Positions 3,821 to 53,141 of a DNA stretch of 64,000 nt are shown here, piece by piece. Within the stretch, counting starts at the first letter, position 1, and each line of letters begins with the position of its first letter. The notes below the pieces were generated by a model that searched no databases, was not told the origin of the DNA, and saw only the letters and a program-made list of their open reading frames with translations. Source of the stretch: Candidatus Dojkabacteria bacterium (lineage in GTDB: Bacteria; Patescibacteriota; Dojkabacteria; J137); the NCBI GenBank assembly GCA_025999215.1, contig AP024679.1:229645-293644 (forward strand), in the 5' to 3' direction. A program made the position numbers and the translations under genes.

Positions 3821-3922
3821 GTTTAGTTTAAAATATCTACAAATAATTCTTTAATTAAGTATAGATTTTGCATATATATTATTGCACTTTAACATTAAAC
3901 ACAAATTAATTTCGGATAAAGT

Positions 3923-4531: not shown

Positions 4532-7500
4532 TTGTTAATGAAGAAAAAATATAAAAAACATAAGGGAATAACTGGATATACCCTTCACAATAAAAGACTT
4601 GTATACACTGGTAACCCAAGTATTCGATCAGTTAAATTACCTCTACTTTACAATGGTGATTCTCAGATTATTCAAAATTTCTATGAATCAATGATTCATG
4701 ATTACGAAAAGCTTAATGGCGCTATTAATATTTCAACTTTTATCAAAGATAAAAATATCTATAGCCTTATAGATTTTTGGTTAGATAGCCTGAGACTTGG
4801 AGTAATATTTGGAAGTTCTTTCAAAAGTTTACAAGGTACCATAAATGAAATTTTTGGTACACGCGGTCCTTATGATGAAATACTCAGTAAGATTCCTCAA
4901 GAATTTAGAAATGAAATAAACTTTGATATTTTTGTTAAAGAAATTTTGCAAAAACAAGGAATGAGAAGCACTTCAAGCAAGAACAGTTTTATAAAAAAAT
5001 TAAAAAGATCGTTTGGTATAGATGAAAATTCACCAGATGATCAAATCCCTACACAAAAAAAATTTGTGATGGATAAAATTAATAAAATTGCCGACAGAAT
5101 GTTCCCAGTTGATAACAATTATAAGGTAGTAGATATTCAAACTCAAAGATTAATATGGAAGGAAGAGTTAAATATAGAATTTTCTGATTCAGACAAATCT
5201 GACTATAAACCAACTTTTTACATCATTCCCAGTTTGGTTGATAAAAATACTAAAGATTTTTCTAAAATCTCGCCGATTGAGGTTTTAAATAAACTTAGAA
5301 ATTTTGTAAAAGAAACATGGAATTATTCCGAAAATGATGAAAAAGAAATAACTTCTCAAGTAAAAAGCCTTGCTGGATTGTCCGAAAACTTTAATGCATT
5401 TTCAAATTATTTCAACAATATTTTTAATTTGTTGTTTGATGGGAATATAGAAGCGGTAAAAGATAATTTAAATGCCGTTTTTGAACTTGAAAAAGCTTGG
5501 GGCGATAATATTGCTGATTTAGATGAAAGATTAAATTATTTGGCAAATCAGGCTCAAAAATTAGGAAAACCCAAAATGCAAAATAATTGGGATACATATA
5601 GATCAACTTTTGGAGGTAAACTTCAAAGCTGGTTTTCAAATCTTTTAAACCAAGAAAATGAAATTAGAAACCAGTTAGAAAAACATAAAAAAGAAATAGA
5701 AGTAGCTATAAAGTTTATAGAAAAGCATGATGAAAATTCTCCAATTCTTCAAGATTTGGATCAGTTAAAACGAATTGTTCAAGAAACTATAAACTCAGGA
5801 AATATATTCGAGGCAGAAACAAAAATTAACCTATACAGACAACTCCTTGCGAAGTTTCGCTCGGATTTTAATCAATTTTACCAACGGCACAACAAAGACG
5901 ATGATGACAATAAAGACTTAAAAATTAACAAGGCTTATCCTAATTTATTTAAAAATCTTAGAGTAACTCCAGAATTTTTTGGTGGCTCTAAATACAAAGA
6001 ATACTCAAAGTACGTAGATAAAACTTTTGATATCATCACACAAGGAATTAATATGGTATTGCAAATAGAAGAATCTTTGATTAATAAAATAGATAAAAAA
6101 AATCTCGAAATAGAAAAAGAATATTTTTGTAAACAATTACAATCTTTAAAAAATAAAATAACTACAGAATCTTTATTAGACAAAGATATCAGAATAGAAG
6201 TAGAATCAATTATCAAAAAATATTATGAGTCCAAAGATAAGTTGCCAGATAAATTTGAAGCTTTCTACATCAGTCCTTACTCCAGAGACAAAAGGCTTAA
6301 ATTGATACCGATTTCAGATGATTTGAATTTCGCTTCACAACTACTTGACATACATACCGGGTTAAACAAATTTGATGTTACTAAATTTGGTTTGGATTTT
6401 AAAAAATATTTATCTTACATTGAAATTTTAAAAATTAGATTTGGTTGGATTTTAAAAATGAGCCAAAATCCTACTATAGATGTTTCAGATCTTAAATATG
6501 ATTTATCGAACTTTGAAAATGCTCAAACTTATGTAGATTACTTCGGTAGCAAAATTGAAGATATTGGAAAATTTGTAAATAGCTTCATATTTAGCGAAAT
6601 AAAAGGTGCAATATCAAAAGCAACAAGAAAAGAATTTGTTGAAAGATATGTTATCCAATTTATGGACAGCGAACAAAGGGGCTTAAAATTAACTTATGTG
6701 CCTAAAATAATAAATTCAAAGCCTGTTTCACTACCTAAGACAGTAAGCTTACCTTCAAATGCTGATGAATTATTACAAGATCCCAAAAATGACAAATTGT
6801 TTTTTTATCCTCATAGATGGAAAGTTTTGTTTGACTTTGCATCAATTAAAACAGAATCAACAGAAAATAAACCTAATGCTTTGGTATTTACTTCAAAAAA
6901 CGATTTTAAAAATCCAAAAAAAGTCTATGTTGATGATGAAAATTCCTTTGATATTACTACATCAAAATACCAAATTCACTTTTTAGACAGGCTTCTTTAT
7001 CAAACAAAAAAATGGCGGCAAACTAAAGTGGAGTTTAGCTCGCCTTTTTTAATTTTGGAAGTTACAAGCAAAGTAACTTGGGATTCTCAAACAAAAAAAC
7101 CAATACTCAAACCCAAATCTAACTCAGCAAAACAAGGTGTTCGACTTTTTATAAATTACCCGATCAATTTAAAAACTTTACCAAAAAGCAAAGAAAACAA
7201 ACAAAGTAATATTTATTTGGGAATTGATACTGGAGAATACGGACTAGCTTGGGTAGCTGTTGATTTTTCAGAAAGATTAGCACCTAAAATTTTAGATAAA
7301 GGCTTTATTTATGACGATTCACTAAGAAAAATACAAGATAGAGTAGATGAGATTAAAGATGCTCAAGTTAAAGGAACATTTGGTATTCCTAGTACCAAAC
7401 TTGCCAGAATTAGACAACACACAATTACTACTTTGCGAAATAAAGTTCATGATTTACTATTAAAATACAATGCTAAAGTAATCTACGAGTACTCAATTTC

Positions 7501-37352: not shown

Positions 37353-38243
37353 GTGGAGTTATTTTTAGATTTCAAAACTATAACGCTAGGAATAGTGGTA
37401 GAAGCCTTGCCTTTCTTGTTGATTGGTGTATTGGTTTCGGTTGCGGTTGATCTTTTTTTAAAACCTGAATGGATTTTTAAATTAATTCCCAAAAACCGCT
37501 ATATTTCTCATTTTTTTGTATCCACGCTAGGAATTTTTATGCCGGTATGTGAATGTGGTAATGTGCCTGTTGCTAGAAGGTTACTTATGTATAACTTAAA
37601 TGTATCTCACGTGATTACCTTTTTGCTTGCAGCGCCAATCATAAATCCAATTACTTTGTGGTCAACTTTGGAAGCTTTTGGTTTTGATCAAAATGTGGCA
37701 ATTTTTAGGTTAATTGGTGCTTTGGTAATAGCGTGTACCGTTGGAATAATTTTGAGTTTTTATAGTAATCAGGAAAATTTTTTAACTAAAAAAATGAAGG
37801 AAGACATTGAAAATTGCCACATACATTCTCATGATGAAAATCGAATTAATAGAGCATTAGATGTATTTGAAAAAGAATTTTTGAGTACTTTCAAATTGTT
37901 GATAATTGGTTCAGCAATTGCTGGTTTTACTCAAACGGTTGTACCTCGAGAAATATTAGAAAATTTAGGTTCTTCGCCTGTTTTGTCTGTGGTTGCTATG
38001 ATGTTACTTGCTTTTGTGGTTTCTATTTGCGCTAATATTGACGCATTTTTTGCGCTTGCTTATGCCAACACTTTTACTTTGGGATCACTTTTGAGTTTTA
38101 TGATATTTGGACCAATGATTGATATGAAAATGCTTGCCATGCTCAAAAATACTTTTAATTTTAAATTACTTTTGATGGTAACAATTTTTGTTGCAACTTA
38201 TAGTTTTTTAATTGGTTTATTAATTAATAATTTTTATGTATAA
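37353..38243 (+). CDS. membrane permease (two-component membrane permease family, first partner)
   Basis: Polytopic membrane protein; the next gene overlaps it and is a DUF1980-like partner. Confidence 0.45.
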   Translation: MELFLDFKTITLGIVVEALPFLLIGVLVSVAVDLFLKPEWIFKLIPKNRYISHFFVSTLGIFMPVCECGNVPVARRLLMYNLNVSHVITFLLAAPIINPITLWSTLEAFGFDQNVAIFRLIGALVIACTVGIILSFYSNQENFLTKKMKEDIENCHIHSHDENRINRALDVFEKEFLSTFKLLIIGSAIAGFTQTVVPREILENLGSSPVLSVVAMMLLAFVVSICANIDAFFALAYANTFTLGSLLSFMIFGPMIDMKMLAMLKNTFNFKLLLMVTIFVATYSFLIGLLINNFYV

Positions 38244-38943
38244 GTTAGCTAACTTTTTAATTATTTTTTTGATCGGAGTTTATTCAAGCTTTTTGATTAA
38301 TTCTGGAAACATCGGGTTGTATATTAATCCTAGATATTTTCAACTCTCTGAGTTTGCAAGCATTGTTTGTTTATTTGTTGGTGCACTTGGTTTAATTTAT
38401 CATTTGAAAAATTTTCAATTTAGAATTAGGTTTAGTTTGAAAGAATTTAAAAACATTTTTAACAGCTATTTTTTCGTTATAATTTTTTTCGTATTTGCAT
38501 TTGGATTTGCGCCTAAAACACTTTCATCTAATATTGCTTCTAGCAGATCAACTGAAAATGGATTTTTTCAAGAAAATTTCGATAGCATATTCGATACATT
38601 CAAAAAAACTGATGAGTCTTTTAATATAAACGATTGGGTAAGTGAAATAGCAAAATCAGGAGACATTTATTCTTTTGAGGGTAGAAAAGTTGATGTAGTG
38701 GGTTTTGTATTTCGAGACAACACTAAAAGCGATGAATTTAGAGTTGGAAGATTTATAATTAGGTGTTGTATTGTGGATGCCACACCAATTAGTTTGCTTG
38801 TGAAATCTGATAAAGCTCAAAACTTTGAAGATAATTCATGGGTGAGAGTTAGGGGGACTTTTATAGTTGAAGATGAAATTTTAAAGGTACAAGCAGGTGA
38901 GATAGAAAAAGTAGAGAAGCCAGATTCACCTTATTATTATTAA
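38236..38943 (+). CDS. DUF1980/TIGR03943-like membrane protein (permease partner)
   Basis: N-terminal TM helices and a C-terminal RCCIVDATPISLLV-type domain. Confidence 0.4.
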   Translation: MYKLANFLIIFLIGVYSSFLINSGNIGLYINPRYFQLSEFASIVCLFVGALGLIYHLKNFQFRIRFSLKEFKNIFNSYFFVIIFFVFAFGFAPKTLSSNIASSRSTENGFFQENFDSIFDTFKKTDESFNINDWVSEIAKSGDIYSFEGRKVDVVGFVFRDNTKSDEFRVGRFIIRCCIVDATPISLLVKSDKAQNFEDNSWVRVRGTFIVEDEILKVQAGEIEKVEKPDSPYYY

Positions 38944-38946
38944 AAT

Positions 38947-40353
38947 ATGTATAACATATCTAACTTAGCTAAAAAACACAAATTCAATCTAATTTATGGG
39001 GTAAGCCTGTTTATTGCTTTTTCTGCAAGTATCTTGTTAGGTGTAAATATTGAAAATCAAACTCCAAAAGTTTTGGAGCTTTTTCAAATTAATGGCGATA
39101 TTGACAATGCGGAAATAGAAAATCAAAAATTAGTTTTTAAAACCAATAGATTAATTGATAAAAATACTCTTAACGCAATCAAGGTTGAACCAGCAGCAAA
39201 GTTTGGAGTAACATCATACGAAAACAAATTAAACATTAATTTTACAGAGCCATTAAAATCTAATCAGGTTTATGCCATAACTTTTGGCGAAGGTTTGCTT
39301 GATGTTTATGGAAATAGCTTTGAAGAAAAATCATTTGAGTTTAAAACTAAAAAACTTCAGCTTGCATTTATGGACCTTGATAGAAAGAAAATCAAAAAAA
39401 CAGATGTAGAGCTTACTAATTTTGAAACTTTGTTTGAAAGCGAGTATGAAATTAAGCGATTTATTGCGCGTGATGCAGGTTTAATTGTTCAAGCAGAAAG
39501 TGGTATTGGAAGTAGTATTTTCTTAGTTTCAGAGAATAATAAAATCAAAGTCGAGTTAAATCAAAAATTAGTGAACGCAATCACTGCTTCAGATAATTTT
39601 GAAAAAGTTTTTTTTGTGGCTGGAGATGCGAACTTCATTGATGGCCAAATTTATCCGACAGGTCTAAACTCCCTTTATGAGCTTGACTTTAAAACTGGAA
39701 TTTATAGAGAAGTACCGCTAGAAAAAAGTGTTTTTTGGGAAGTAGTTGATGCGCAAATTGTGCCTGATGGGTCAGCTATTTTAATTAAAAATTTTGAATC
39801 TAATTTTTTTCTTGTTAGTACTTCAAATTACAGTGATTACATTAACCTTGGTAAATATTTGGATGTAACTGATTTTAACCAGGTAGCCAAAAAATATCTT
39901 GCTGTAGAATCACCATTTGGGGCGAGCTTTGCAAATTTTCCTTACATAACCATAATTGACTCTAATTCTAACAAAACGGCAATAACCGATGGTGATGTGT
40001 ATGTTTTGGATCCTAAGTTTTGGGGAGCTGATTCTATAGTTTATTCAAGTAGAGTTGCTGAAACGGATTATTCGAGAGGGCTTTTTGGTATAAGTATTTT
40101 AAATTTGCAAAATAATGAAATAAAAGAGTTAATTAAAATTAACGATAAAAGTGTGGAATTGCCAATAGTAAGCCCTGATTTAAGATATATCGCAGTAGAA
40201 ATTTATAATAAGGATGATTTAAATAGCTTTGAAGGACTAAGAAATAAAGGCTTTCAGTCAAAGCCGGGAATAGCAGAAATTGGAATAATTGATATGGAAA
40301 ATAATCTTTTGATAAGTAAAGGGGTAGAGGGTATTGAAGCTCAATGGATGTAA
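38947..40353 (+). CDS. hypothetical membrane-anchored extracytoplasmic protein (Ig-like plus beta-propeller-like)
   Basis: N-terminal TM segment; no catalytic motif. Confidence 0.35.
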   Translation: MYNISNLAKKHKFNLIYGVSLFIAFSASILLGVNIENQTPKVLELFQINGDIDNAEIENQKLVFKTNRLIDKNTLNAIKVEPAAKFGVTSYENKLNINFTEPLKSNQVYAITFGEGLLDVYGNSFEEKSFEFKTKKLQLAFMDLDRKKIKKTDVELTNFETLFESEYEIKRFIARDAGLIVQAESGIGSSIFLVSENNKIKVELNQKLVNAITASDNFEKVFFVAGDANFIDGQIYPTGLNSLYELDFKTGIYREVPLEKSVFWEVVDAQIVPDGSAILIKNFESNFFLVSTSNYSDYINLGKYLDVTDFNQVAKKYLAVESPFGASFANFPYITIIDSNSNKTAITDGDVYVLDPKFWGADSIVYSSRVAETDYSRGLFGISILNLQNNEIKELIKINDKSVELPIVSPDLRYIAVEIYNKDDLNSFEGLRNKGFQSKPGIAEIGIIDMENNLLISKGVEGIEAQWM

Positions 40354-40579
40354 ATTTTTCAAAAAATATTTACTTAGCTAATCATATTTGGTATAAAGCA
40401 CTAGTTAAAAGGTTTACGTAAAGTGCAATTAGATTGTAGCATCAAAACATACATTAGCTATACTATACAAACTTTTACACACTTCTCTCTAAAATTTATA
40501 CTTAAAAAATATCTCAGAAAATTCCTTTGTAAGGTAATAAACTTCAAAGTATTTATTTATTATGAAAAATTAGTAAATT

Positions 40580-41035
40580 TTGAAACCTGAAAATGTATAC
40601 AACGTAACTAAATGGATAGTGTCGATTGCTGGAATAGTTATTTTGGGTTCGTTTGCTTTCTCTAAAGCCTCTAGGAAAGCTATTTGGGAAAGAGCGAAGG
40701 GAGTTTCAGAATTATCTGGAGAAAGAACTAGAAGAATGGAGTGCGCTCATTTAGATCATGATCAAACAAAAAATTATTATGACGACCCAAACAATGGATT
40801 GTTAGTTACAATTTTTGAACACCACGCTCATCATCTGTTTTTTGAAGGTCGAGCTTTTTTGATAGGTTTGAGTGAAGAAGCAAATGAAGTGGCAATACAA
40901 AAAACTTGGGACAGAATTTTTGAATTTGAAAAAAATATTTCCGAAGAAGAAGCTGAAATGAAAGTTCAAGAAGCGATAATAAGATGGGCTAATTATTACA
41001 GAGTCCGTTTTGTTAGGAGTTGCGAAGAAGCATAA
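40580..41035 (+). CDS. small membrane-anchored protein with a His-rich, HNH-like motif
   Basis: ECAHLDHD...N...HHAHH. It lies directly upstream of the type II array. Confidence 0.3.
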   Translation: MKPENVYNVTKWIVSIAGIVILGSFAFSKASRKAIWERAKGVSELSGERTRRMECAHLDHDQTKNYYDDPNNGLLVTIFEHHAHHLFFEGRAFLIGLSEEANEVAIQKTWDRIFEFEKNISEEEAEMKVQEAIIRWANYYRVRFVRSCEEA

Positions 41036-41104
41036 ATATTTGTAGTTGGAGTTTAGTTTTTTGGGATTAAGGATTAAATTTGAAAAACGGTAAAAACGGT
41101 AAGA

Positions 41105-41273
41105 GTCTTTATTCCCTTCTAATTCCCGATAGTGTATAATAGCGATAGCGATGCCATTATACACAAAACAGTCTTTATTCCCTTCTAATTCCCGATAGTG
41201 TATAATAAACGGAAAAACTAGAAAACTTTACGTTCTGTCTTTATTCCCTTCTAATTCCCGATAGTGTATAATA
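41105..41273. CRISPR. CRISPR array: 3 x 37-nt repeats GTCTTTATTCCCTTCTAATTCCCGATAGTGTATAATA, 2 spacers of 29 nt
   Basis: Repeats at 41105-41141, 41171-41207 and 41237-41273. Spacers at 41142-41170 and 41208-41236. Each repeat ends in TGTATAAT. Confidence 0.85.
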
Positions 41274-41276
41274 ACC

Positions 41277-41390
41277 AAAGGGAATAAAGCCTAATGATAA
41301 AGCAAAATAGAGCTTTTGGCTAAGTAAAAAATTAGAACAAAGTTAGTTGATCGGCCGAGTTTTTGGTTTCTTTTTGAGCAGGTTTGCCAA
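41277..41390 (+). ncRNA. candidate tracrRNA (model A): the anti-repeat AAAGGGAATAAAGCC lies 4 nt after the last repeat; extent unknown
   Basis: 41277-41291 is the reverse complement of repeat positions 3-14, with 12 of 13 matching. The TATAAT of the last repeat (41267-41272) would place a transcription start at about 41279-41281. Confidence 0.3.
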
Positions 41391-41658
41391 GCAAAATGTA
41401 CATTTTTTCGTATTGTCTTTCGGTGATGATGAGCGCTCGGATTGCGCCTTTTTGAGGTACATTTTTTTGCAGTCTGTCTATGTGTTTTTTTGTGCCGTCC
41501 AATCCTTTACATATGCGTGAATATACAGAATACTGAAGCATAAAGTAACCGTCATTCAGTAAAAACTTTCGAAATTTTGTATATTTTTTCCGCAATCCCG
41601 GATTATTTACCGGTAAATCAAAAAATACAAGTATGCGCATATATTTTTGATTATTCAT
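41332..41658 (-). CDS. cas2: CRISPR-associated endoribonuclease Cas2
   Basis: MRILVFFDLP...LQYSVYSR matches the Cas2 signature. Confidence 0.85.
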   Translation of the reverse strand: MNNQKYMRILVFFDLPVNNPGLRKKYTKFRKFLLNDGYFMLQYSVYSRICKGLDGTKKHIDRLQKNVPQKGAIRALIITERQYEKMYILLGKPAQKETKNSADQLTLF

Positions 41659-42562
41659 AACAAATACGCTTTATCCTATTAAAACTTGGTAGTTCCAACA
41701 TTTTGGAATTTTTATTTTGAATACACGAAACTAGGCTTTTGACTACATGCTCGGTGGCAGTCATCAATTGCGTTTTTTGATTTTTAATAATTACTTCAAT
41801 TTCAAAAATTTGCATTAAATGAGCTTTAGTTTGTGGCGTTAGATTAGAATCTTCTTGTTTGAGGTTGAGAGTGCGTATCAAAAAATAATCGGCAATTGGT
41901 CTAAAAGGTTCAATTAAGTCATCAGCCAAATTAAAGTTGTTGTATTCGTTGCAGTGTTTGATGCCTATACTAGGAATAAAACCATAAGCGCTACAATGCC
42001 TTGCTAGATTGGATCTGATTAGGGCGTAGGTAAAATTAAGGGCAGAATTTATAAAAATATCTTTATCTCGTGTAAAATTTTTCCCAAAAATAGTAGTGAA
42101 ATATATGCCAGATGCTCTTCCTTCTATGTTTGATTTGTCTGATGATTTTACTTGTTTGCTTAGGGTCAATAGAGTGTTACTCTCTAGAGTAAAATTAAGC
42201 AATTTGAGCACTTTGGCTTGATTGCGAATTTTTTGAGAGACTATCTGTTGCCACAATTGATTTTTGAATGGTTGAGTTAGAGAAACTTGCTCCATTATTC
42301 TTTTGCTTTGTCGTGTATGGTTTTGATAAGGTAAAATTATAGCTTCGGGTAAGTGTTTGCCATTGCATACAATTGCGCATACTTTGTTTTGAGTAAGTGA
42401 AACTATCAGGTTAGAGGTTAGAAGTGATTGGCTATCTATCACTAAAGTGTCTATATCTTCTATTGGAATTTCAAATTTTTCTCCATCTTTTTCAATCACT
42501 ATTTGAGAATTTTTTTGGCTTAGTTTGGTGTTGCTTGAGATTAGAATATTTCTAAATCCCAT
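41651..42562 (-). CDS. cas1: CRISPR-associated Cas1 (type II)
   Basis: 303 aa with Cas1 motifs including YGFIPS...DLIEPFRP; it overlaps cas2. Confidence 0.85.
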   Translation of the reverse strand: MGFRNILISSNTKLSQKNSQIVIEKDGEKFEIPIEDIDTLVIDSQSLLTSNLIVSLTQNKVCAIVCNGKHLPEAIILPYQNHTRQSKRIMEQVSLTQPFKNQLWQQIVSQKIRNQAKVLKLLNFTLESNTLLTLSKQVKSSDKSNIEGRASGIYFTTIFGKNFTRDKDIFINSALNFTYALIRSNLARHCSAYGFIPSIGIKHCNEYNNFNLADDLIEPFRPIADYFLIRTLNLKQEDSNLTPQTKAHLMQIFEIEVIIKNQKTQLMTATEHVVKSLVSCIQNKNSKMLELPSFNRIKRICYE

Positions 42563-42567
42563 TGATT

Positions 42568-45500
42568 TTACTTTAATATAATTGGTTGCCTTGTTTCTTT
42601 ATGTACTTTGTATAGCCTTCCTAGTACATCTACTTGATATTTTTCAATCAAATATAAATTTTTGGATCCTTTCCTAATGTATCCTTTGGAGCCCACATTG
42701 TCGTGCTTTACAAAACTTATTCTTGCATTTGAGGAGTCTACACCAATGAAATATCCACTCAGGTAATAATCATCATCTTTCTTAACTTTTATTTTGATAA
42801 AATCATTTTTGTAAAGGCTAAATTGAAACTCATATGTATCATCAAGTTCTTGCCAGTCGCTCTTTGGAGTATTGATAGTAATGACCTTATTTGGGAGTTC
42901 TCCTGACATAATTTCTGGAAGATAAATTGGCACAAGATAGTATTTTCCATCTTTTTTGAAAACATCCGTTCTCACAATGCGAGAGTTAAGTACATATCCA
43001 TATCCATTTCCTCTTTTTAATTTAACGGTATTGTTTTCAACAGTTTCGCTAATGTACGAAAAAATAGGGCTTTTTTTGTTGGGATCTTTCCAGGTTAATG
43101 GTTCATCTGGTTCTAATTTTCGTTTTTCATTTATAGCTTTGTTTACTGCTTTGTAATATGCTGGATCAGTGTTTTTATAAATTTTTTCAAGAGAATTATT
43201 TAAATCTTTAGATTCTTTTGATAGGTCAATTTGCTTTCTAGTACCTAGTATACTTAAACCTTTCTCGGTTACTCCTCTTTGACTATAAACTGTTTCAAGG
43301 TGCGCTGCGCCTCTAATTTTTCTTTTTGGCTCACGAGATACAATCAAAGGTTTAATTTTGTTTTTAATATCTTTATACAGTTTAAGAAAATCATCAGATT
43401 TTTTATATTTCCAAAACTCTGAGTTTATTTCGCCATTTTGCTCTTTAGAATCCATCTTTTGCGGTTTTTGTGTACCAAAAACTCTTATCAACACATCGTT
43501 TCTAAAGTTAGGCCAAGGATTGGGGAAAGATTTTTTTCGTTTATAAAAATTTTCTTTGTCGTTTTTGTGCCATTCATTCATTTTTTGAATCATCCATGGA
43601 GTGGTAATGCCTACTAGTGTGGCATCAACTGCATGGTGCCTTGCATTTAAATCACGATTTTTTGGTAATCCATACATTTTGAGCAAGTAGTTAGTCATTG
43701 CACCGGTTATCACGTAGACTTTTCGTTTTTTTCCAGGCGTTTCTCTAAATTTTAAATTGTTTTCTACGTAATTTTTGATAGTTCTTGCCGCAAATTGAGT
43801 ATCATTTAAATTTCTATTCAAGAACTCTTCCGGAGGAACATCTTTTGGTAGAGTAGTGTTTAATATTTTATTTTTTTTGGATGTATTAATGTTAAGGCTA
43901 TTTACAAAATTTACAAAGTTTTGCCATTGTTCAGAATTTTCATCTCCTCCAAAATATTCAAAAGGGGTACTGTTTCCTTTTTTTCTATTTACACTGGTTA
44001 ATACCAAAATTTTATTGTTTCTTGAATCATCAAATGATCTGCTGTAAGGTAAAGCGTGATCAATTTCAACGTAGTTATCTTCAAAGAGTTTTTCTGCAGG
44101 AATTTCTTTACCAGACAATAAACATTTGCCTAGCTGTTCTTCTCGTAATTCGTATTTAAGTATATCGTGAGGAGTTACTTCTTTAGTTTTGAAATAGTCA
44201 AAGTTTTCTTCTAAAAATTTCTTTATTTTTTCTTTTCCTTTGGTTATTTCTTCTAAATTTTTTGTTATTTTTCTTTTTTCATCTTCACTTTTTGCCAAAT
44301 CTCTAGCAAGCTCAATATTAACAAAACTTGGGCTTCCATATTTATCTACTATGGCGTTAATAACTTTTCTTGTTTGCGATATTACTTTTTTGACTACAGG
44401 ATTGGTAACTGATGAACTCGTAAATGGCGGGAGTTTTGTAAAATTTCTTTTAAGTTTTAAGGTTTCATTAGGATACTTACTGCGCAAAATTTCTTCTGCA
44501 TGGGTGTAGTTTTCTCCTTCTTTTCGAATTATTTGAGCTAATTCTTTGTAAGCTTTGACTGAAAGATTTGCAAAGCCTGATAAGTTCGGTCCGTAATTTA
44601 CCAAAGTTTCAACTTCTTGAGGACTTAGTTGTGAAATTCCCTCAAAATAATCTTTCAAATCTTCATCAGTTTTTCTAACGGTTAAGCCATACACAATTTG
44701 TTCATAAAGATTAAAATCATTTGTGATTTTTTCCCAAAGATCACCATTTCTGTCTTTAATAGCTTTTCGAAGTTTGTGATATCCACTTAAAGGTTTTAAA
44801 CCTTTGATCTTTTCTTTTTCTTTGCTTGCATCAACATCTCTAAAAGAGTACTCTTCGGGAATTTCTGCCCACTTTCTAATGTGATAATAACTTATGTTTG
44901 AAGAGTGGGAAAATATATGATCATAAATCTTATCAAGTTCGCTTTGATTCAAAGGTCTTAACTCTCCTGTTTTTGTGTTAAAAACTTTAATGTTATTTTG
45001 CAGAAAGTTAAAAAATCTAAATATTTCAAAATTTATTGAGTGTACAGGTGCTCTGCTTTCATTTGGGAAAATACCACACTTTCCAACCATTTTTTCAATG
45101 TCATCTGTTTGTGCAAAAGGCCTTTGATAATTAAAAATCTCCAAAATTTTATTTTCAAAATCTTCAGTGATCTTTTTGTTTCCAAACTTTTTTTGTTTTT
45201 TTTAAATTTCTTTGAGTTCATCTTCAAGCATTTTTCGAGTTACCAGTCTTTTGTAGTTTCCTCTTCTATTTCTCTTTTGAAACTTAAACTCTTCATCTTT
45301 ATAAAACATTTCTCCAACTGTTCTGTAATTTTTTAAAAGTTCTTGGTTTTTTGATATATTCTCTGCTAGTTTTCCGCCTTCTTCTCCTTCTAATGCAATA
45401 TTTTTACGGTTTGATTTAAACCCTCTCCTTTTGACTATGTGTATCAAAACTCGAGCTAATTCTTCATCAGTTAAGCGCTCATCTAACGCCTTGCAACGAA

Positions 45501-45813
45501 GGAACCATGGATCATGTTTTTTGATATCAAAATTGTCAAATTCCGTGGGGAAACCAAAGCTATCTAGAGCTTTTTTAAGTTTTTTTATTCTGTATTTTCT
45601 TCTTCTTACTACTCGCCTTGATGATCGGGCTTCTCTTCTCACTTGATTTGGGTGTTTATCTCCTGCATTTACTCCAGCTTCAAAAACTCTTACTCCAGTA
45701 TCAATCAACCTCACTGGACGATAATATTCATTTTCTTTCTGTATTTCTATTACAGCCCAACCAATTGTCGCAGACCCTATATCAAGGCCAAGCGTATACT
45801 GTAAATCTTTCAT
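42568..45813 (-). CDS. cas9: Cas9 (type II-C-like, about 1078 aa), reading frame interrupted by one in-frame TAA at 45202-45204
   Basis: N-terminal fragment (45202..45813) has RuvC-I LGLDIGSATIGWAVIE and the Arg-rich bridge helix. C-terminal fragment (42568..45144) has the HNH motif (DHALPYSRSFDDSRNNKILV), RuvC-II (KVYVITGAMTNYL) and RuvC-III (HHAVDATLVG). Both fragments are in the same frame. Confidence 0.85.
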
Positions 45814-45909
45814 TTTTTTTATTTTTTAATTCTCTACAAAAGTAGAGATGAGTTTTCTAAAGGATCTCAAACCTTTCGGCTTATTGCCTTATCTTTATAA
45901 CCTTAATAA

Positions 45910-45930
45910 CTTTATTCCCGATAGTGTATA
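45910..45930 (+). repeat. solitary degenerate type II repeat, missing the internal 11 nt TTCTAATTCCC
   Basis: CTTTATTCCC-GATAGTGTATA equals repeat positions 3-12 joined to 24-34. It lies 97 bp upstream of the cas9 start. Confidence 0.6.
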
Positions 45931-45978
45931 TTCAAGCTATAAAGATTCAGTTTAATTCTACAAAACTTATGAAAATAT

Positions 45979-46075
45979 TTCAAGGAAAATATTTCTAAGA
46001 TCTTCCTAAAATTTCATCCAAGCTGTTGGGATCGGGTTCAGAAAATTTTAAATGCAAAGTATTGTTTACTCTATA
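45979..46075 (+). repeat. direct repeat copy A (duplicate of the 3' end of ORF 47229..48725), downstream of pyrD
   Basis: About 75 nt are near-identical to 47213-47291 (AAATATTTCTAAGATCTTCC[T/C]AAAATTTCATCCAAGCTGTTGGGATC[G/A]GGTTCAGAAAATTT), with weaker similarity for another 20 nt or so. Confidence 0.75.
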
Positions 46076-46086
46076 TTTCCTATATT

Positions 46087-47127
46087 TCAAGAATTAAATT
46101 TTTTTAGCAATAATTTATTTATTTTCTTCACCAAAGCTGGCCCTTCGTAAACAAATCCTGTATAAATTTGTACTAAATCGGCCCCTGCATTTATTTTTTC
46201 TAAAGCATCTTGTGGAGATGTTATACCTCCCACTCCAATTACTGGAAATGCGTTTTTTGATTTTCGCTTCAAGTATTTTATTACTTCTGTTGAGTTTTTA
46301 AATATAGGTTTACCACTCAATCCACCTCCACCAATTTTATTAACGACTTTGTGGTGTGTGATCAATCTATACCGGTTTGTGGTTGTATTGGTGGCAATTA
46401 CACCATCAATTTTTGTTTCTTTGACAATCTCAATAATATCGTCTAACTGTTGATGATTTAAATCTAGTGAAATTTTCAATAATATAGGTTTTCGTTTAGA
46501 TTTTTGGTTGTTTTCTTGTTGTAGCCGATTTAACAGATCTGTGAGAGGTTTTTTATTTTGCAATTTGCGGAGGTTTGGAGTATTGGGTGAACTTACATTT
46601 ACCACAAAGTAATCAACATACATGAAAAGCTCGTTAAAGCATTTCAAATAATCTTCGGCAGCTTTTTCGTTTGGAGTAAATTTATTTTTTCCAATATTTC
46701 CGCCTATTACAATGTCTGTTTTTCTCTTTTTTAAATTCTCCACAACTTTTAATACTCCATCGTTATTGAAACCCATTCGATTAATCAGCGCTTTGTCTTT
46801 TGGTAAAAAGAAAAGTCGTGGCTTAGGATTTCCTGGTTGAGGTTTTGGTGTAACAGTACCGATTTCTATAAAACCGAATCCAAAGTTTGAAAATTCATTG
46901 TAAAAGCAAGCATTTTTATCAAATCCAGCTGCCAAACCTATTGGATTTTTAAAATGTAATCCGAAGAGTTGTCTCTCAAGGGCAGGAGAATTAACTGTAT
47001 AGATTTGTTGTGTTACTTTTTTAAATAATGGGATTTTGAATAAAGTTTTTATTATAACTACAAAAACATAAATTGCCTTTTCAGGTGGTAGTAATGATAA
47101 ACTTAATCTTATGATTATTTTATGCAT
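46087..47127 (-). CDS. pyrD: dihydroorotate dehydrogenase (quinone-type, membrane-anchored)
   Basis: N-terminal hydrophobic anchor, [10 protein letters not shown], and NIGKNKFTP...GGLSG motifs. Confidence 0.85.
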
Positions 47128-47212
47128 TTAGTTTATTCTATCAAAAATCAAAACTTAATATAAAAATATAAATGATAGTTTGATTAATATACTTTTGGTA
47201 AACTTTTGATGT

Positions 47213-47300
47213 TTTTCAAAAAATATTTCTAAGATCTTCCCAAAATTTCATCCAAGCTGTTGGGATCAGGTTCAGAAAATTTAGAGTGTAAATTTGCAAA
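47213..47300 (+). repeat. direct repeat copy B (the coding 3' end of ORF 47229..48725)
   Basis: See copy A. Confidence 0.75.
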
Positions 47301-48898
47301 AAAAGAATTATCTTTTCGTAGCTCTTCAAGCATCAAATAAACCCAATATTTGTAACCAAAATCAGCACCATGCCCCAATCTTAGCGAAGTTAAATAAACC
47401 CATTGTGTTGGTGGAGCGCTCATGTGCATTTTGGCCGAATGCGCAAGAGGTAGAATGTTGTAGATAAATGTTCTATCAGCTTTTGGTTCAAGGAAGGTAT
47501 CAATTTTACTGTAAAATTCCCAGACTTTTTTGTAATAAGTTTCAAAAGTTTCTATCCATTTTGGAACTAAATCAGAAAGCGCGCGAGTTTTGACTAACTG
47601 AAAATTAATATGGAAACCTTCTTTTAAAATGCTTTCAACATCAGAGCTTTCAATCATATGAATTAACCTACCTGTAGCTCTTTGTCTATTCAAATCTCTA
47701 ATGTATGCAACTGAAGTTTTTGATACTAGTATTAGTTGCCCTCTCACATCACCAATTCTTTGCATTAGGTTGTGATGATTGTGATCTTTGAGAATTATTT
47801 CACCTATTTTGCTTTTTGTTTTTTTGTCTAACTTAGATATAAATTTTAAAATTTCATTTTCATTAACACTCGGATACAAAACAGAAATGTAGCTTAGCGC
47901 CAAAGCTTCCCCAGCATCAAAATTACTGATTTTGTAAACTAACGTTTCTGATCCTTGGATTTGATCTTTAGGTTTTAGAATTTTTTTAATATTAGTGTTT
48001 TTTTCAAGAAAATCTTTGAGTTCTTGTAAGTTTTTAGGTACTGTTTTGGTACCTTCCGCATACTTTGTCAAACCTTCAAAGTTTAATTGAATTTTTTCTC
48101 CCTCAGCATATCGTCTAATATTAAGCAATGTTTCAATTTGTGTTGCTAGAGCTTGCATTCGAACATCATTTTGATGATCTCTTAATTGAGCAATATTTGT
48201 AATGTGTTGTCTTACTGTTGTGTTTATAACCATCGCCGTGCGAGCGCCTATAGGAATAAACCCTCTTGATATATCAAGCACTCTCGCGTTTAATGTTGAT
48301 TGAGTAAGTTTTTGAGGATGGTTTTGTTTTTGAATTTCATCGTTTATAAATTTTTTTAATTTATCAGTTAATAGTTTGGTCCAAATTTCATAGTTTTCAG
48401 CCAAGAATTTTTGTAAATCATCCCATTCAGCTTCTAATTCTTCTAACTTTTCAGCATCAAACAACTCAGAGTTTATTAGAGATCTTAACTTAGGAATTTT
48501 AAACTCTCCAATTTTAACGTACCTGGTAGACAATTCTTGTCCGGATTGTCTTGAATCAATGTTAAATATGGTTAGAGCTTCTTCCATGGTAATGCCTTCA
48601 ATCGATAAGAGTAGTGGGGTAGCAAGGTCAGCCACACTTGCATGCCCGTAATTCACAAATACTTTCGCTAATTTTTGAGCAGCAAAGTCAGGATCATTTT
48701 TGGAGTGTTCGTTTATTTCTCGCATGATTTCAAGCAGTCCACCGCCATTTCGAGAATATCTGGCGCCGGCCCATGCGGTGATGTTGTAAAAATCTTTTGT
48801 GTTCGTTTGGTATCGGGAGTCCTAAGTGTAATGTTTGTTTCGGTGTCAGTTAAACTTAAGATGGTAAAATTAAATTTATCTGGATCGCCAATTTCCAA
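47229..48898 (-). CDS. ThyX-like (flavin-dependent thymidylate synthase fold) protein, unusually long and possibly two tandem domains; the N-terminus probably continues in ORF 48713..48898 across a frameshift
   Basis: FNIDSRQSGQELSTRYVKIGEFKIPK parallels the ThyX block [25 protein letters not shown], but the RHR motif is not conserved. Confidence 0.3.
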
Positions 48899-51430: not shown

Positions 51431-53141
51431 GTTTTCAGTTAAAATTGTAGGTGAATCGGGACAAGGTATTAATTTAATGGGAGAAGTTTTGAGTAAAGCT
51501 TTTTTAGAGCTTGGTTATTATGTTTTTGGTTATAGAGAATACCCTTCTTTGATAAAAGGAGGAAGCGCTTCATATCAGTTAGATATTTCAGCTCAAAATA
51601 TAAATTCTTCTTTTAAATCTTCCAACGTGATTATCGGTTTGAGCAGGATTGCATTAAGCCAATATTTAAGTGATATATCAGATGGTGGGTTAATAGTTCA
51701 TAATGTTGTTAAATTTCAAAAGAGTGAAGCTGAGAATCATATTTTAAAATCTAAAAATGCAAGCGAAGAATTTATTGATACTAATTCTTTGCTAGACAAA
51801 TTAAATTTAAATTACAGATACGCCAATACATTTTTGGTAAGTTTAATCTGGGCTAGGCTAGGTTTTGATGTTGAAATTCTGCAAGAAATTTTTAAAGAAT
51901 ACTTTAAAGAACGAGATGATATTTTAGAAAATAACTTGACATGCATTAACTTGGGTTTTGAGGAGGGATCTAATCAAAGTTTAGTTGAGCATGGATTAGA
52001 TAAGCCAGAAAAAAAAGCAAATTTAGAAATAATGACGGGAAATGAAGCGATTGCGCGAAGCGCAATCGCTTGTGGTGTAAGAGCTTTTTATGCTTATCCA
52101 ATGACTCCTGCATCAAGTATTTTAGAATATCTGGCAAACAATGCCATTAATACCGGGATGATAGTAAAACAAGCAGAAGATGAAATAACCGCAGCGCAAA
52201 TGACTTTGGGGAGTATGTTTATGGGAACACGAGCCATGACAGCTACATCTGGAGGAGGTTTTGATTTAATGACTGAAACCATATCTCTCGCAGGCATGAC
52301 GGAAACACCTTTTGTATGCGTTTTAGCACAAAGGCCGGGACCTGCCACTGGTTTACCAACCTGGACCCAAGCAGGTGACTTGAATTTAGCTATTTTTGCA
52401 GGGCATGGTGAATTTCCTAGATGCGTTTTAGCATGTAGCGACTTGGAGTCTTGTCATAGGCTTACTCAACAGGCGTTTAATATTGCTGAGTATTTTCAGA
52501 TTCCAGTTATAGTTTTGACGGAAAAACATATTGCAGAATCGTACTTTACCAAAGATACAAATTTTGAAAATTTGCCAATTATACGTAACTTGGTGGAAGG
52601 TAAGGCGCTTGAGAAGCTTTCACCAAATGATAGATATCAGTTTACAGATTCTGGAGTTTCTAAAAGATGGGTGATTGGAGCGAGTAAAGCAACTTTTTTA
52701 GCTAATAGTGATGAACACTCTGAAGATGGTTCTGTAACTGAAGATGCAAGTTTGGCGCAACAAATGTATGAAAAAAGAATGAAAAAGTACACTGGACTAC
52801 TGAAAGTCATTCCAGAACCAACTCTTTTTGGAAAAACTTCGGGAGAATTTTTGCTGATTGGTTGGGGAAGCGTTAAGTTATCTGTTTTAGATGCAATAAA
52901 TTTTGCTGATAAAAATGTTTCTTATCTTCACCTTGAGGTGCTTCACCCATTAGATATAGCTAAGTTATCTAATATTATGGGTAGATTCAAAAAGTATATT
53001 GCAATTGAACAAAATTATCTAGGTCAAATGTCTAAAATTTTAGAAATGGAATTAAAGATAAGTTTCACTGATAAATGGTTGAAGTATGATGGTAGACCTT
53101 TTTTTGTAGATGAAGTTATTAAATATATTAATAAATTATAA
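51420..53141 (+). CDS. porA: 2-oxoacid (pyruvate):ferredoxin oxidoreductase, fused gamma-alpha subunit
   Basis: The N-terminal gamma-like domain is followed by the alpha domain (NEAIARSAIACGVRAFYAYPMTPAS). Confidence 0.8.
   Translation: MKNRFSVKIVGESGQGINLMGEVLSKAFLELGYYVFGYREYPSLIKGGSASYQLDISAQNINSSFKSSNVIIGLSRIALSQYLSDISDGGLIVHNVVKFQKSEAENHILKSKNASEEFIDTNSLLDKLNLNYRYANTFLVSLIWARLGFDVEILQEIFKEYFKERDDILENNLTCINLGFEEGSNQSLVEHGLDKPEKKANLEIMTGNEAIARSAIACGVRAFYAYPMTPASSILEYLANNAINTGMIVKQAEDEITAAQMTLGSMFMGTRAMTATSGGGFDLMTETISLAGMTETPFVCVLAQRPGPATGLPTWTQAGDLNLAIFAGHGEFPRCVLACSDLESCHRLTQQAFNIAEYFQIPVIVLTEKHIAESYFTKDTNFENLPIIRNLVEGKALEKLSPNDRYQFTDSGVSKRWVIGASKATFLANSDEHSEDGSVTEDASLAQQMYEKRMKKYTGLLKVIPEPTLFGKTSGEFLLIGWGSVKLSVLDAINFADKNVSYLHLEVLHPLDIAKLSNIMGRFKKYIAIEQNYLGQMSKILEMELKISFTDKWLKYDGRPFFVDEVIKYINKL

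Follow-up and report, generated by a model that had tools for sequence, protein, structure and literature searches.

In Campylobacter jejuni, the tracrRNA is encoded just after the CRISPR array on the crRNA strand, and it is transcribed mostly from promoters that lie within the repeats (PMC3656092; PMC3737331). Such repeat-embedded extended -10 promoters have been demonstrated experimentally in C. jejuni and Neisseria meningitidis, with crRNAs that start at the fifth or sixth nucleotide after the repeat (PMC3656092; PMC12477760). Spacer acquisition in type II-C systems takes place at the last, cas-proximal repeat (PMC12080349; PMC12477760), and the extra repeat of these arrays is the cas-distal one (PMC12080349). 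Hairpins between leader and repeat are known from type II-A and type VI systems, where they block extraneous crRNA (PMC12080349; PMC13187072). A published analysis of type II-C systems described no such hairpin, but the flank examined was the cas-distal one (PMC12080349).

The 64-kb stretch analyzed here (the window) contains a small type II-C CRISPR-Cas9 locus of a Candidatus Dojkabacteria bacterium, with cas9-cas1-cas2 on the minus strand and the array on the plus strand (Table 1). A short inverted copy of the repeat lies beside the cas2-proximal repeat, and the first-pass annotation had regarded this copy as the beginning of a possible tracrRNA driven by the terminal repeat. Our analysis shows that the tracrRNA of this system is a minus-strand RNA just upstream of cas9 (about 45948-45825) and not array-adjacent, and that the inverted copy is a feature separate from it, inside the acquisition leader.

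Table 1. Features of the type II-C locus, in coordinates of the window.
Feature	Position	Strand	Remarks
CRISPR array	41105..41272	+	three identical 36-nt repeats, two 30-nt spacers
Repeats, GTCTTTATTCCCTTCTAATTCCCGATAGTGTATAAT	41105-41140, 41171-41206, 41237-41272	+	all three identical
Spacers, 30 nt each	41141-41170, 41207-41236	+	
Putative -10 element, TATAAT	41267-41272 (last repeat); also 41135-41140, 41201-41206	+	homology to C. jejuni/N. meningitidis repeat promoters
Acquisition leader, 59 nt	41273..41331	.	between cas2-proximal repeat and cas2 stop codon
Inverted partial repeat copy, AAAGGGAATAAAGCC	41277-41291	+	13/15 vs reverse complement of repeat nt 1-15
cas2	41332..41658	-	Pfam CRISPR_Cas2, E = 1.9e-16
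cas1	41651..42562	-	Pfam Cas_Cas1, E = 1.5e-30
cas9, type II-C	42568..45813	-	Pfam HNH_4, RuvC_III, Cas9_RuvC, Cas9_a
tracrRNA, both ends approximate	45825..45948	-	just upstream of cas9
tracrRNA anti-repeat	45931-45890	-	pairs with 35/36 repeat nt
Nexus hairpin, GGC-AATAA-GCC	45888-45878	-	part of tracrRNA
AAAGG/CCTTT helix	45876-45859	-	part of tracrRNA
Terminal hairpin, TCTCTAC-TTTT-GTAGAGA	45848-45831	-	part of tracrRNA
Promoter-like element, TTGAAA-17 nt-TAGAAT	45955..45983	-	upstream of tracrRNA anti-repeat; 10/12, consensus match only

The locus and its putative repeat-embedded promoters

The assignment to type II-C follows from a gene set of cas9-cas1-cas2 only, without csn2 or cas4, and from the position of the array after cas2. 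A dihydroorotate dehydrogenase gene and an ORF without assignment flank the locus. The cas9 frame comprises 1,081 codons, within the range of about 1,000-1,100 aa typical of type II-C Cas9, and contains one in-frame TAA (45204-45202), which splits it into ORFs of 203 aa and 858 aa; the frame runs on past the stop, and the N-terminal 203 aa are 49% identical to residues 1-203 of P0002. With this in-frame stop codon and an array of only two spacers, the CRISPR-Cas system may be decaying. The closest Cas9 relative is only 38% identical, and a search of genome contigs for close relatives yielded two distant loci whose arrays were not useful, while viral contigs searched with the 15-mer from the 5' end of the repeat gave single chance matches only and no arrays. 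The nucleotide that follows each repeat is an A (3/3). No degenerate extra repeat was found on either side of the array; in three other loci (L003, L008, L012), the degenerate repeat is the cas-distal one. A decayed spacer-repeat unit 3' of the last repeat was also considered, but was rejected: the 59-nt leader is shorter than the 66-nt unit, and the stretch 41303-41338 matches the repeat at 12/36 positions, which is background.

The 3' end of every repeat reads TGTATAAT / GTGTATAAT. The first-pass annotation had described a TATAAT hexamer with an adjacent TG that faces the plus direction, and this is indeed present in 3/3 repeats. With regard to an extended -10 element, the observations point in two directions: the element is homologous to the C. 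jejuni and N. meningitidis promoters and the TATAAT is perfect, but the TG directly abuts the hexamer and therefore lies at -14/-13, one position outside the canonical register TGnTATAAT. Among related repeats, TGnTAnnAT is found in 10/11. The homology suggests that the repeats of the window are putative promoters. The crRNA strand is the plus strand, as the anti-repeat of the tracrRNA upstream of cas9 is complementary to the plus-strand repeat and brings the nexus beside repeat nt 1. Therefore, the array is read toward cas2 and antisense to the cas operon, in agreement with the direction given in the first-pass annotation (cas2 = 41658..41332, minus strand). A transcript that begins at the fifth or sixth nucleotide after the last repeat would have its predicted start at 41277 or 41278, exactly where the inverted copy begins.

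The tracrRNA upstream of cas9

In a window-wide duplex scan, the best partner of the repeat outside the array was the anti-repeat upstream of cas9, with a predicted anti-repeat:repeat duplex of -36.2 kcal/mol and a 17-nt exact repeat match (45914-45930). A homologous tracrRNA was found in eight related II-C loci, in the same position and orientation and with the same duplex geometry, in which a 2-nt mismatch separates the lower stem of 8 bp from a long upper stem. Homology is indicated by the blocks GGTTAyAAArATAAGG and GwAAGG, which are conserved in the tracrRNA of the relatives, together with a nexus helix that has changed on both sides with the pairing kept. In comparison with its II-C relatives, the tracrRNA of the window is devoid of their GC-rich U-tract terminator, and only 17 nt lie between its end and the cas9 ATG, so that the two may be transcribed together. 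An Rfam scan of 38000-48000 (E <= 10) gave no tracrRNA and no other credible family; the Rfam tracrRNA model is built on II-A sequences.

The alternative is that the inverted copy serves as anti-repeat in a tracrRNA, be it the main one or an additional, minimal one, which the terminal repeat would drive and which would load Cas9 with crRNA. The C. jejuni layout invoked for this reading is real (PMC3656092; PMC3737331) and is matched by the arrangement in the window, the predicted start site coincides with the start of the anti-repeat, and the copy covers the 5' part of the repeat, which the mature crRNA retains. However, the upstream element has the longer anti-repeat and a conserved scaffold on the minus strand, and the array-adjacent candidate is not the best partner of the repeat (13/15 nt and -16.0 kcal/mol vs 35/36 nt and -36.2 kcal/mol). 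Neither a nexus nor hairpins nor a terminator were found 3' of the copy, the TATAAT of the last repeat is the only promoter feature seen for it, and the cas2 stop codon is reached 55 nt after the start of the candidate. Folding of 41277-41400, which the first-pass annotation had proposed as a search for nexus and terminal hairpins, resulted in z = +1.04, and 175/200 shuffles folded at least equally well. In the relatives, only a short inverted repeat copy is common and nothing downstream of it is conserved, whereas the cas9-upstream tracrRNA is conserved in position, sequence blocks, and structure. The idea of a degenerate tracrRNA paralogue was dropped as well, since the tail of the candidate is without similarity to the true tracrRNA tail. 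Taken together, a function of the copy as tracrRNA anti-repeat is highly improbable.

An inverted repeat copy in the leader and its recurrence

The copy in the leader corresponds, in reverse complement, to repeat nt 1 and nt 3-14, and it includes the exact 12-mer AAGGGAATAAAG at 41278-41289. The first-pass annotation had correctly given its sequence and its distance of four nucleotides from the last repeat (AACC, 41273-41276), and had judged the complementarity to be short, which agrees with a predicted copy:repeat duplex of only -16.0 kcal/mol. What has been copied is the 5' end of the repeat, i.e. the end that is most distant from the leader. The 12-mer is absent from the remainder of the 64 kb outside the array, on both strands and with up to one mismatch allowed (<=1), 0.8 occurrences being expected window-wide. 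For an inverted repeat copy in the 40 nt beside the last repeat, the empirical p was 0.0003 against a background of 6,366 natural 40-nt windows out of the same 64-kb window. An energy-based enrichment test was much weaker than this identity-based one (p = 0.03 in the window, 0.12 in L012, and 0.20 in L015).

In related loci, the 40 nt beside the cas2-proximal repeat were likewise searched for an inverted copy of the repeat of that locus. The clearest case was L012 (p = 0.0027), whose copy GTTTTTATTCC likewise lies 4 nt off the repeat. It was followed by L013 (0.0096), L009 (0.031), L015 (0.072), L001 (0.12), L011 (0.24), and L010 (0.67), and the values in four outgroup loci were 0.28-0.80. Combined by Fisher's method, L009-L013 and L015, with the window and L001 left out, gave a chi-square of 36.9 (12 df, p about 2e-4) in a sample that is small and not fully independent, as L001/L009 and L004/L006 are pairs of close relatives. 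The leader thus carries complementarity to its adjacent repeat beyond chance expectation. The geometry of the copies varies, with offsets of 0-11 nt from the repeat, and L013 copies nt 17-30 and not nt 1-14. In the minimum-energy fold of last repeat plus leader, a repeat-leader helix was predicted for 6/6 loci that are without a leader terminator, and the two mismatches of L015 and the single one of L013 can be accommodated as G-U pairs only if the RNA is that of the crRNA strand. Covariation between leader and repeat was also looked for, but the cross-locus matrix gave no consistent preference of a leader for its own repeat, because the repeat 5' ends are nearly identical throughout the clade.

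The occurrence of leader terminators is complementary to that of the inverted copies across the 14 loci compared. The six copy-bearing loci have short leaders (41-60 nt) without a canonical terminator; in the leader of the window, a search of both strands found no canonical intrinsic terminator. A terminator hairpin is present in the leaders of seven loci (L004, L005, L006, L008, L010, L011, L136), and a significant inverted copy is absent from L004, L006, L008, L010, and L011, while the contigs of L005 and L136 end inside the first repeat. The leaders of the Neisseria-like L008, the Geobacillus-like L004/L006, and L003 of the Cellvibrionales have no inverted copy.

Proposed leader-repeat pairing, its alternatives, and known systems

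We tentatively favor the view that the inverted copy is a leader-repeat pairing element that acts in plus-strand RNA; its function, the promoter activity, the transcript ends, and the biological effect of the pairing are what we infer here. In plus-strand transcripts that exit the array toward cas2, the last repeat would contribute its nt 1-14 (41237-41250) to a helix with the copy, and the predicted hairpin would have 12-14 bp and a 27-nt loop that holds the -10 box. An RNA from the last repeat's own promoter could not form this hairpin, because its 5' arm would be missing; in such a short RNA, initiated at a repeat promoter that has no spacer behind it, the copy would constitute the extreme 5' end. 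The element sits where other II-C loci have an intrinsic terminator, but a standard terminator would require a U-tract behind the hairpin, and this is missing, which excludes such a function. It may be an array-exit element that handles the terminal unit or those transcripts that run antisense into cas2, and it would not take part in Cas9 loading. Masking of the leader-adjacent repeat handle would, if anything, hinder the newest crRNA.

Some of these observations can also be explained at the level of DNA. The copy would then be a leader motif for spacer integration that is read as dsDNA by Cas1-Cas2 or a host factor, helping to define the leader-repeat junction as integration site, and one and the same protein surface would meet this motif on both sides of the repeat. 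In the window and in L012, 4 nt separate the motif from the integration junction, the motif persists among loci with Cas9 proteins that are only 35-45% identical, and a leader copy that does not track repeat changes fits a conserved binding site equally well as pairing. The Neisseria II-C leader is stated to hold elements essential for acquisition (PMC12477760), and Flavobacterium columnare has II-C and VI-B arrays served by one II-C integrase, which are alike at the leader-distal repeat end and not at the junction, for which the authors propose recognition via junction-distal motifs (PMC8092290). However, a spacing to the junction of 0-11 nt and the use of a different repeat part in L013 are hard to square with a rigid protein-DNA geometry, the motif is missing in Neisseria-like and Geobacillus-like II-C leaders, the two copies are asymmetric about the two integration sites, and the G-U-compatible mismatches hint at RNA pairing. 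We therefore regard the DNA-level explanation as unlikely.

Another explanation is that the copy has no function and represents a scar of aberrant integration or repair, or the remnant of a decaying Campylobacter-type array-adjacent tracrRNA. The system looks degenerate (in-frame stop in cas9, two spacers), the complementarity is short, its energy-based significance is modest and covariation is not clear, and in C. jejuni a full anti-repeat occupies exactly this position (PMC3656092; PMC3737331). Against this, the tracrRNA is already upstream of cas9 in all relatives examined, including those with a Cas9 of about 35-45% identity, and a neutral relic of 12-14 nt should be gone, because such divergence would have erased it. 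Moreover, inverted copies are enriched beside the last repeat in independent loci (p about 2e-4) and absent from the outgroups, and the 59-nt leader has no room for a decayed spacer-repeat unit. A mere relic thus appears improbable.

Two further explanations assign the copy to an RNA of its own. In the first, the last repeat's promoter, which has no spacer behind it, would give rise to a leader RNA that acts in trans without being a Cas9 scaffold. This RNA would have the anti-repeat at its 5' end and continue through cas2 and cas1 in antisense direction. Pairing of its 5' end with the 5' handles of crRNAs could titrate these handles, or could make the antisense regulation of the adaptation genes dependent on crRNA abundance. 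In the clearest cases, the window and L012, the copy begins exactly at the predicted start (fifth/sixth nt), and there is no terminator ahead of cas2. With repeat nt 3-14, the copy can form an unbroken run of 12 Watson-Crick pairs and thereby a more regular helix than the lower stem of the true tracrRNA, which is interrupted, and the G-U-compatible mismatches suit pairing in trans as well as in cis. The copies of L013 and L015, however, begin at +1, so that a start at +5/+6 would lose 4-5 nt, and that of L009 begins only at +12; no structure is predicted for such an RNA, and the regulatory logic is speculative. For these reasons, a trans-acting RNA is decidedly unlikely.

The second explanation concerns the minus strand, on which GGCUUUAUUCCCUUU would lie within the 3' untranslated part of the cas operon transcript and act as a repeat-like handle. 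This handle could pair with the tracrRNA, and the preceding 20-30 nt would serve as a guide for self-regulation, in the manner of scaRNA or tracr-L. The minus-strand sequence resembles repeat nt 1-15 (13/15), and about 12-14 nt of repeat suffice as Cas9 guide handle in engineered single guides. Repeat-like regulatory RNAs are known near cas genes (bioRxiv 10.1101/2023.03.03.530964; PMC12477760). However, a search of the 64-kb window with the pseudo-guide, including the cas9/tracrRNA promoter region, gave chance 10-12-mers only and no match anchored in the seed, the L013 and L015 mismatches are C-A or A-C on the minus strand, and a dedicated promoter or terminator is lacking. A crRNA-like RNA is therefore scarcely credible.

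The pairing element that we favor may extend beyond this locus. It is conceivable, although we would call it doubtful, that a II-C clade with repeats beginning GTTTTTRTTCCC, including the locus studied here, has an undescribed anti-repeat in the acquisition leader beside the cas2-proximal repeat, which replaces the leader terminator and base-pairs either with the adjacent repeat or, in trans, with crRNA handles. The leader anti-repeat could also represent the starting point from which a Campylobacter-type tracrRNA, array-adjacent and driven by a repeat promoter, has evolved, or else what has been stabilised of such a tracrRNA as a remnant. Studies of CRISPR extra parts have covered only the cas-distal flank of II-C arrays, and we found no analysis of the cas-proximal side, at which spacers are acquired and from which the last repeat's promoter, with no spacer behind it, would fire toward cas2. 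The inverted copy, which recurs in several related Cas9 loci, may thus be a small leader element that has perhaps not been described before. If confirmed, it would be the II-C counterpart of the leader-repeat hairpins of type II-A and type VI systems, it would provide an element that can be mutated for testing the ends of II-C array transcripts or the marking of the integration site, and it would bear on the origin of array-adjacent tracrRNAs such as that of C. jejuni. For practical purposes, the short array-adjacent anti-repeat is a decoy in tracrRNA prediction, and guides for this Cas9 should be designed on the basis of the cas9-upstream RNA.

Compared with known systems, the array side of the locus resembles C. 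jejuni in that an inverted repeat copy follows the cas2-proximal repeat within few nucleotides, the repeat has a -10-like end that reads toward cas2, and the anti-repeat lies where transcription from the last repeat's promoter would begin. The copy in the window is shorter (13-15 nt vs about 25 nt in the C. jejuni anti-repeat) and is limited to repeat nt 1-14; it is not followed by a scaffold for Cas9 binding or by a terminator, and a complete tracrRNA is encoded elsewhere in the locus. In this latter respect, the locus is like the Neisseria, Haemophilus, and Geobacillus-like II-C systems and, among the loci compared here, L001, L004, L005, L009-L013, and L015, in which the tracrRNA lies upstream of cas9, the anti-repeat is directly followed by AAGG and the nexus hairpin, and the array is positioned after cas2 and transcribed toward it (PMC6199352); in the Neisseria-like L008, unlike in the window, the tracrRNA is on the opposite strand. 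The element in the leader shares its place with the II-C leader terminators, which start 7-14 nt after the cas2-proximal repeat, but it has neither their self-contained GC-rich hairpin nor the U-tract, and its 5' arm is the repeat. In type II-A systems, transcription passes through the leader first, and it is the extra repeat without a spacer that is masked; in the window, the repeat precedes the leader in the crRNA-sense transcript, and masking would affect the cas2-proximal repeat, which belongs to the newest crRNA. The rationale of the II-A hairpin therefore does not transfer to this locus. What the locus has in common with type II-A and type VI systems is an acquisition leader with a short complement to the leader-adjacent repeat, which is enriched at this position and predicted to form a helix.

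Locus and inverted repeat copy

The region is a minimal type II-C CRISPR-Cas locus, and its array contains two spacers of 30 nt each, with no degenerate extra repeat on either flank. As the first-pass annotation had described, all three repeats end in GTGTATAAT with a TATAAT, and an inverted repeat copy, here called the element, lies past the last repeat, directly after AACC. The element is identical to the reverse complement of repeat nt 1–15 (counted along the plus strand) at 13 of 15 positions, and its exact 12-mer (41278–41289) has no second occurrence outside the array in the 64 kb, even at one mismatch. It sits within the 59-nt leader between the last repeat and cas2, and an inverted repeat copy in this segment has an empirical p of 0.0003 against 6,366 natural 40-nt windows of the same sequence. 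Spacer acquisition in II-C systems takes place at the last, cas-proximal repeat (PMC12080349, PMC12477760), and therefore the array–cas2 flank is the acquisition leader.

Features of the CRISPR-Cas locus in the window
Feature	Position	Strand	Remark
cas9	45813-42568	minus	
cas1	42562-41651	minus	
cas2	41658-41332	minus	
CRISPR array	starts 41105, 41171, 41237	plus	three identical 36-nt repeats GTCTTTATTCCCTTCTAATTCCCGATAGTGTATAAT
Element	41277-41291	plus	AAAGGGAATAAAGCC
tracrRNA anti-repeat	45931-45890	minus	ATATACACTATCGGGAATAAAGTTATTAAGGTTATAAAGATA; upstream of cas9

A metagenome-assembled genome of Candidatus Dojkabacteria encodes a protein identical to the 858-aa cas9 ORF, and the next closest Cas9 shares only 38% identity. 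Candidatus Dojkabacteria belongs to the candidate phyla radiation, a group in which CRISPR-Cas9 systems are uncommon, and the source genome has a GC content of 32%. The gene is interrupted by one in-frame TAA (45204–45202, minus strand) in the A-rich run GAAATTTAAAAAAAACAAAAAAAG; the 203 aa ahead of it share 49% identity with the N-terminus of the closest Cas9, and homology resumes in the same frame past it, both sides of the stop being Cas9-like. The TAA could mark a pseudogene, be a genuine nonsense allele or stem from an error in assembly, and the window's CRISPR system may be decaying; a comparable premature stop is known from cas9 of C. jejuni RM1221 (PMC3656092). At the cas-distal end, a 151-aa ORF without Pfam match (40580–41104 region) reads toward the first repeat, directly ahead of which AAAAACGGT occurs twice in tandem (41083–41100). 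As this repeat is unmutated and no terminator was found between it and the ORF, read-through could give an extraneous crRNA.

The tracrRNA upstream of cas9

The first-pass annotation had proposed the element as the anti-repeat of a possible tracrRNA, but when both strands of the window were scanned in full for duplexes with the repeat, the best partner outside the array lay upstream of cas9. This anti-repeat pairs 35 of 36 repeat nt at −36.2 kcal/mol, compared with a predicted −16.0 kcal/mol for the element:repeat duplex, and it is directly followed by a scaffold of AAGG and the hairpin GGC-AATAA-GCC, an AAAGG/CCTTT helix and a TCTCTAC-TTTT-GTAGAGA hairpin; a promoter-like TTGAAA-17-TAGAAT lies upstream. 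It fixes the crRNA strand as plus, so that transcription of the array runs toward cas2, in agreement with the earlier annotation. The next-best repeat duplex after array and tracrRNA, a 60-nt tile at ~51921–51990 (plus strand, −26.4 kcal/mol), is probably a chance match, having no long exact word in common with the repeat.

Among related loci collected via Cas9 homologues, the best anti-repeat of eight (L001, L004, L009–L013 and L015) occupies the corresponding position and strand, and in all eight the duplex is built alike, with 8 bp in the lower stem, a mismatch of 2 nt and a long upper stem. For a ninth, L005, the tracrRNA was read from upstream sequence, and a complete repeat is missing because the contig ends within it. 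An alignment of seven tracrRNAs contains the invariant blocks GGTTAyAAArATAAGG and GwAAGG, and its nexus helix has pairs that differ on both sides with pairing kept. In the Neisseria-like Wielerella locus L008 (~4870–4910), the anti-repeat upstream of cas9 lies on the strand opposite cas9, whereas the window and its closer relatives use the cas9 strand. L013 carries a second antisense repeat-like segment, ATTGTAACATATCGGGAAATCATAGGGAAC (~3788–3823, ~170 nt upstream of the tracrRNA), also present in L014, which could be either an orphan repeat that has degenerated or another anti-repeat. Between tracrRNA and cas9, every relative has a TATAAT box and a GC-rich terminator with a U-tract; in the window, the sequence after the last tracrRNA hairpin (45811–45848, minus strand) is A-rich, the cas9 ATG follows 17 nt on, and neither a U-tract nor a separate promoter was found in between. 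Here, tracrRNA and cas9 may be co-transcribed.

The element itself lacks the properties of a tracrRNA. Shuffled sequences fold at least as well as the plus strand at 41277–41400 (z = +1.04), no terminator was found for the candidate, its tail has no similarity to that of the real tracrRNA, and the cas2 stop codon is only 55 nt away; on these grounds we rejected it as a true tracrRNA, and a true or second tracrRNA is very improbable. An Rfam scan of the region gave no match.

Recurrence in related leaders

Inverted copies recur in related leaders. L012, whose repeat is near-identical to the window's at the 5′ end, carries GTTTTTATTCC, repeat nt 1–11 inverted without a mismatch, 4 nt from the cas2-proximal repeat; in L015, GTTCTTGTTCACCT adjoins the repeat and matches nt 1–14 at 11 of 14 positions; the close relatives L009 and L001 contain TGTTCCCT and GGTTCCCCTAA, respectively; and L013 has a copy of nt 17–30 in a predicted tight hairpin whose 8-nt loop overlaps the −10 box. 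Empirical p-values for an inverted copy of the locus's own repeat were 0.0027 (L012), 0.0096 (L013), 0.031 (L009), 0.072 (L015), 0.12 (L001), 0.24 (L011), 0.67 (L010) and 0.28–0.80 in the outgroups L003, L004, L006 and L008. Fisher's method over six independent relatives (L009–L013 and L015), without the window, where the copy was discovered, and without L001, which is closely related to L009, gave a chi-square of 36.9 (12 df, p ~2e-4). This recurrence argues against a non-functional scar or relic, which we consider unlikely.

When the last repeat and the leader were folded together, the minimum-energy structure included a repeat–leader helix in each of the six copy-bearing loci, whose leaders are short (41–60 nt) with no canonical terminator. 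In seven other loci, the position of the copy is taken by a terminator hairpin that is often bidirectional; five of these could be tested (L005 and L136 could not), and an inverted copy was significant in none. After cas2, L001 (10379–10414) and L006 (6492–6526) have a single orphan repeat without spacers and keep intact cas9-cas1-cas2 and tracrRNA, resembling the experimental one-repeat arrays of Neisseria (PMC12477760).

An energy-based enrichment test was weak (p = 0.03 for the window, 0.003 for L013, 0.12 for L012 and 0.20 for L015). A cross-locus matrix showed no consistent preference of leaders for their own repeat and is uninformative because the repeat 5′ ends are too alike across the clade; for this reason, no covariation is claimed. 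L015 has two mismatches and L013 one that would become G-U pairs only in crRNA-sense RNA; these three hint at RNA-level pairing on the plus strand, although they are too few to decide.

Possible roles and comparison with known systems

Our preferred, though tentative, reading of the element is a leader-embedded anti-repeat that may pair with the leader-adjacent repeat in plus-strand transcripts exiting the array. It would replace the leader terminator of other II-C loci and would not provide a Cas9 scaffold; as the hairpin is not followed by a U-tract, it does not qualify as a standard terminator. Against this reading, RNA started by the promoter of the last repeat itself would lack the 5′ arm, and masking the leader-adjacent repeat brings no evident benefit. 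II-C repeats each contain a promoter (PMC3656092, PMC12477760), with transcripts starting at spacer nt 5 in C. jejuni and nt 6 in N. meningitidis (PMC3656092, PMC12477760). The TG of the window repeats directly adjoins TATAAT and is thus one position away from the canonical extended −10 register TGnTATAAT, which is present in 10 of 11 related repeats, and the first base of the element is the predicted start site of the last repeat's putative promoter. That the element forms the 5′ anti-repeat of a trans-acting leader RNA, antisense to cas2, is rather improbable, and a minus-strand crRNA-like RNA, for which a target search of the window found none, is extremely so.

The element could instead be a double-stranded DNA motif recognised by the integrase, as its location would suggest, together with work on F. 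columnare from which recognition of the leader-distal repeat end by the II-C integrase was inferred (PMC8092290), but the variable spacing, with offsets from the repeat of 0 to 11 nt across loci, weakens this idea, and we regard it as unlikely.

We found no description of a cas-proximal leader anti-repeat in the accessible literature, and a published II-C analysis, in which the cas-distal flank was examined, reported no leader–repeat hairpin (PMC12080349). The C. jejuni tracrRNA lies in the array–cas2 flank on the crRNA strand and is transcribed mostly from repeat promoters (PMC3656092, PMC3737331). As it sits exactly there, the C. jejuni-like arrangement proposed for the window is a real layout, but this locus uses another; the element has the same position and is truncated, without scaffold. 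Leader–repeat hairpins of II-A and type VI systems share the idea, but in the window the order along the transcript is the opposite and the masked repeat would be another one. With its tracrRNA upstream of cas9, the locus is otherwise an ordinary member of type II-C.
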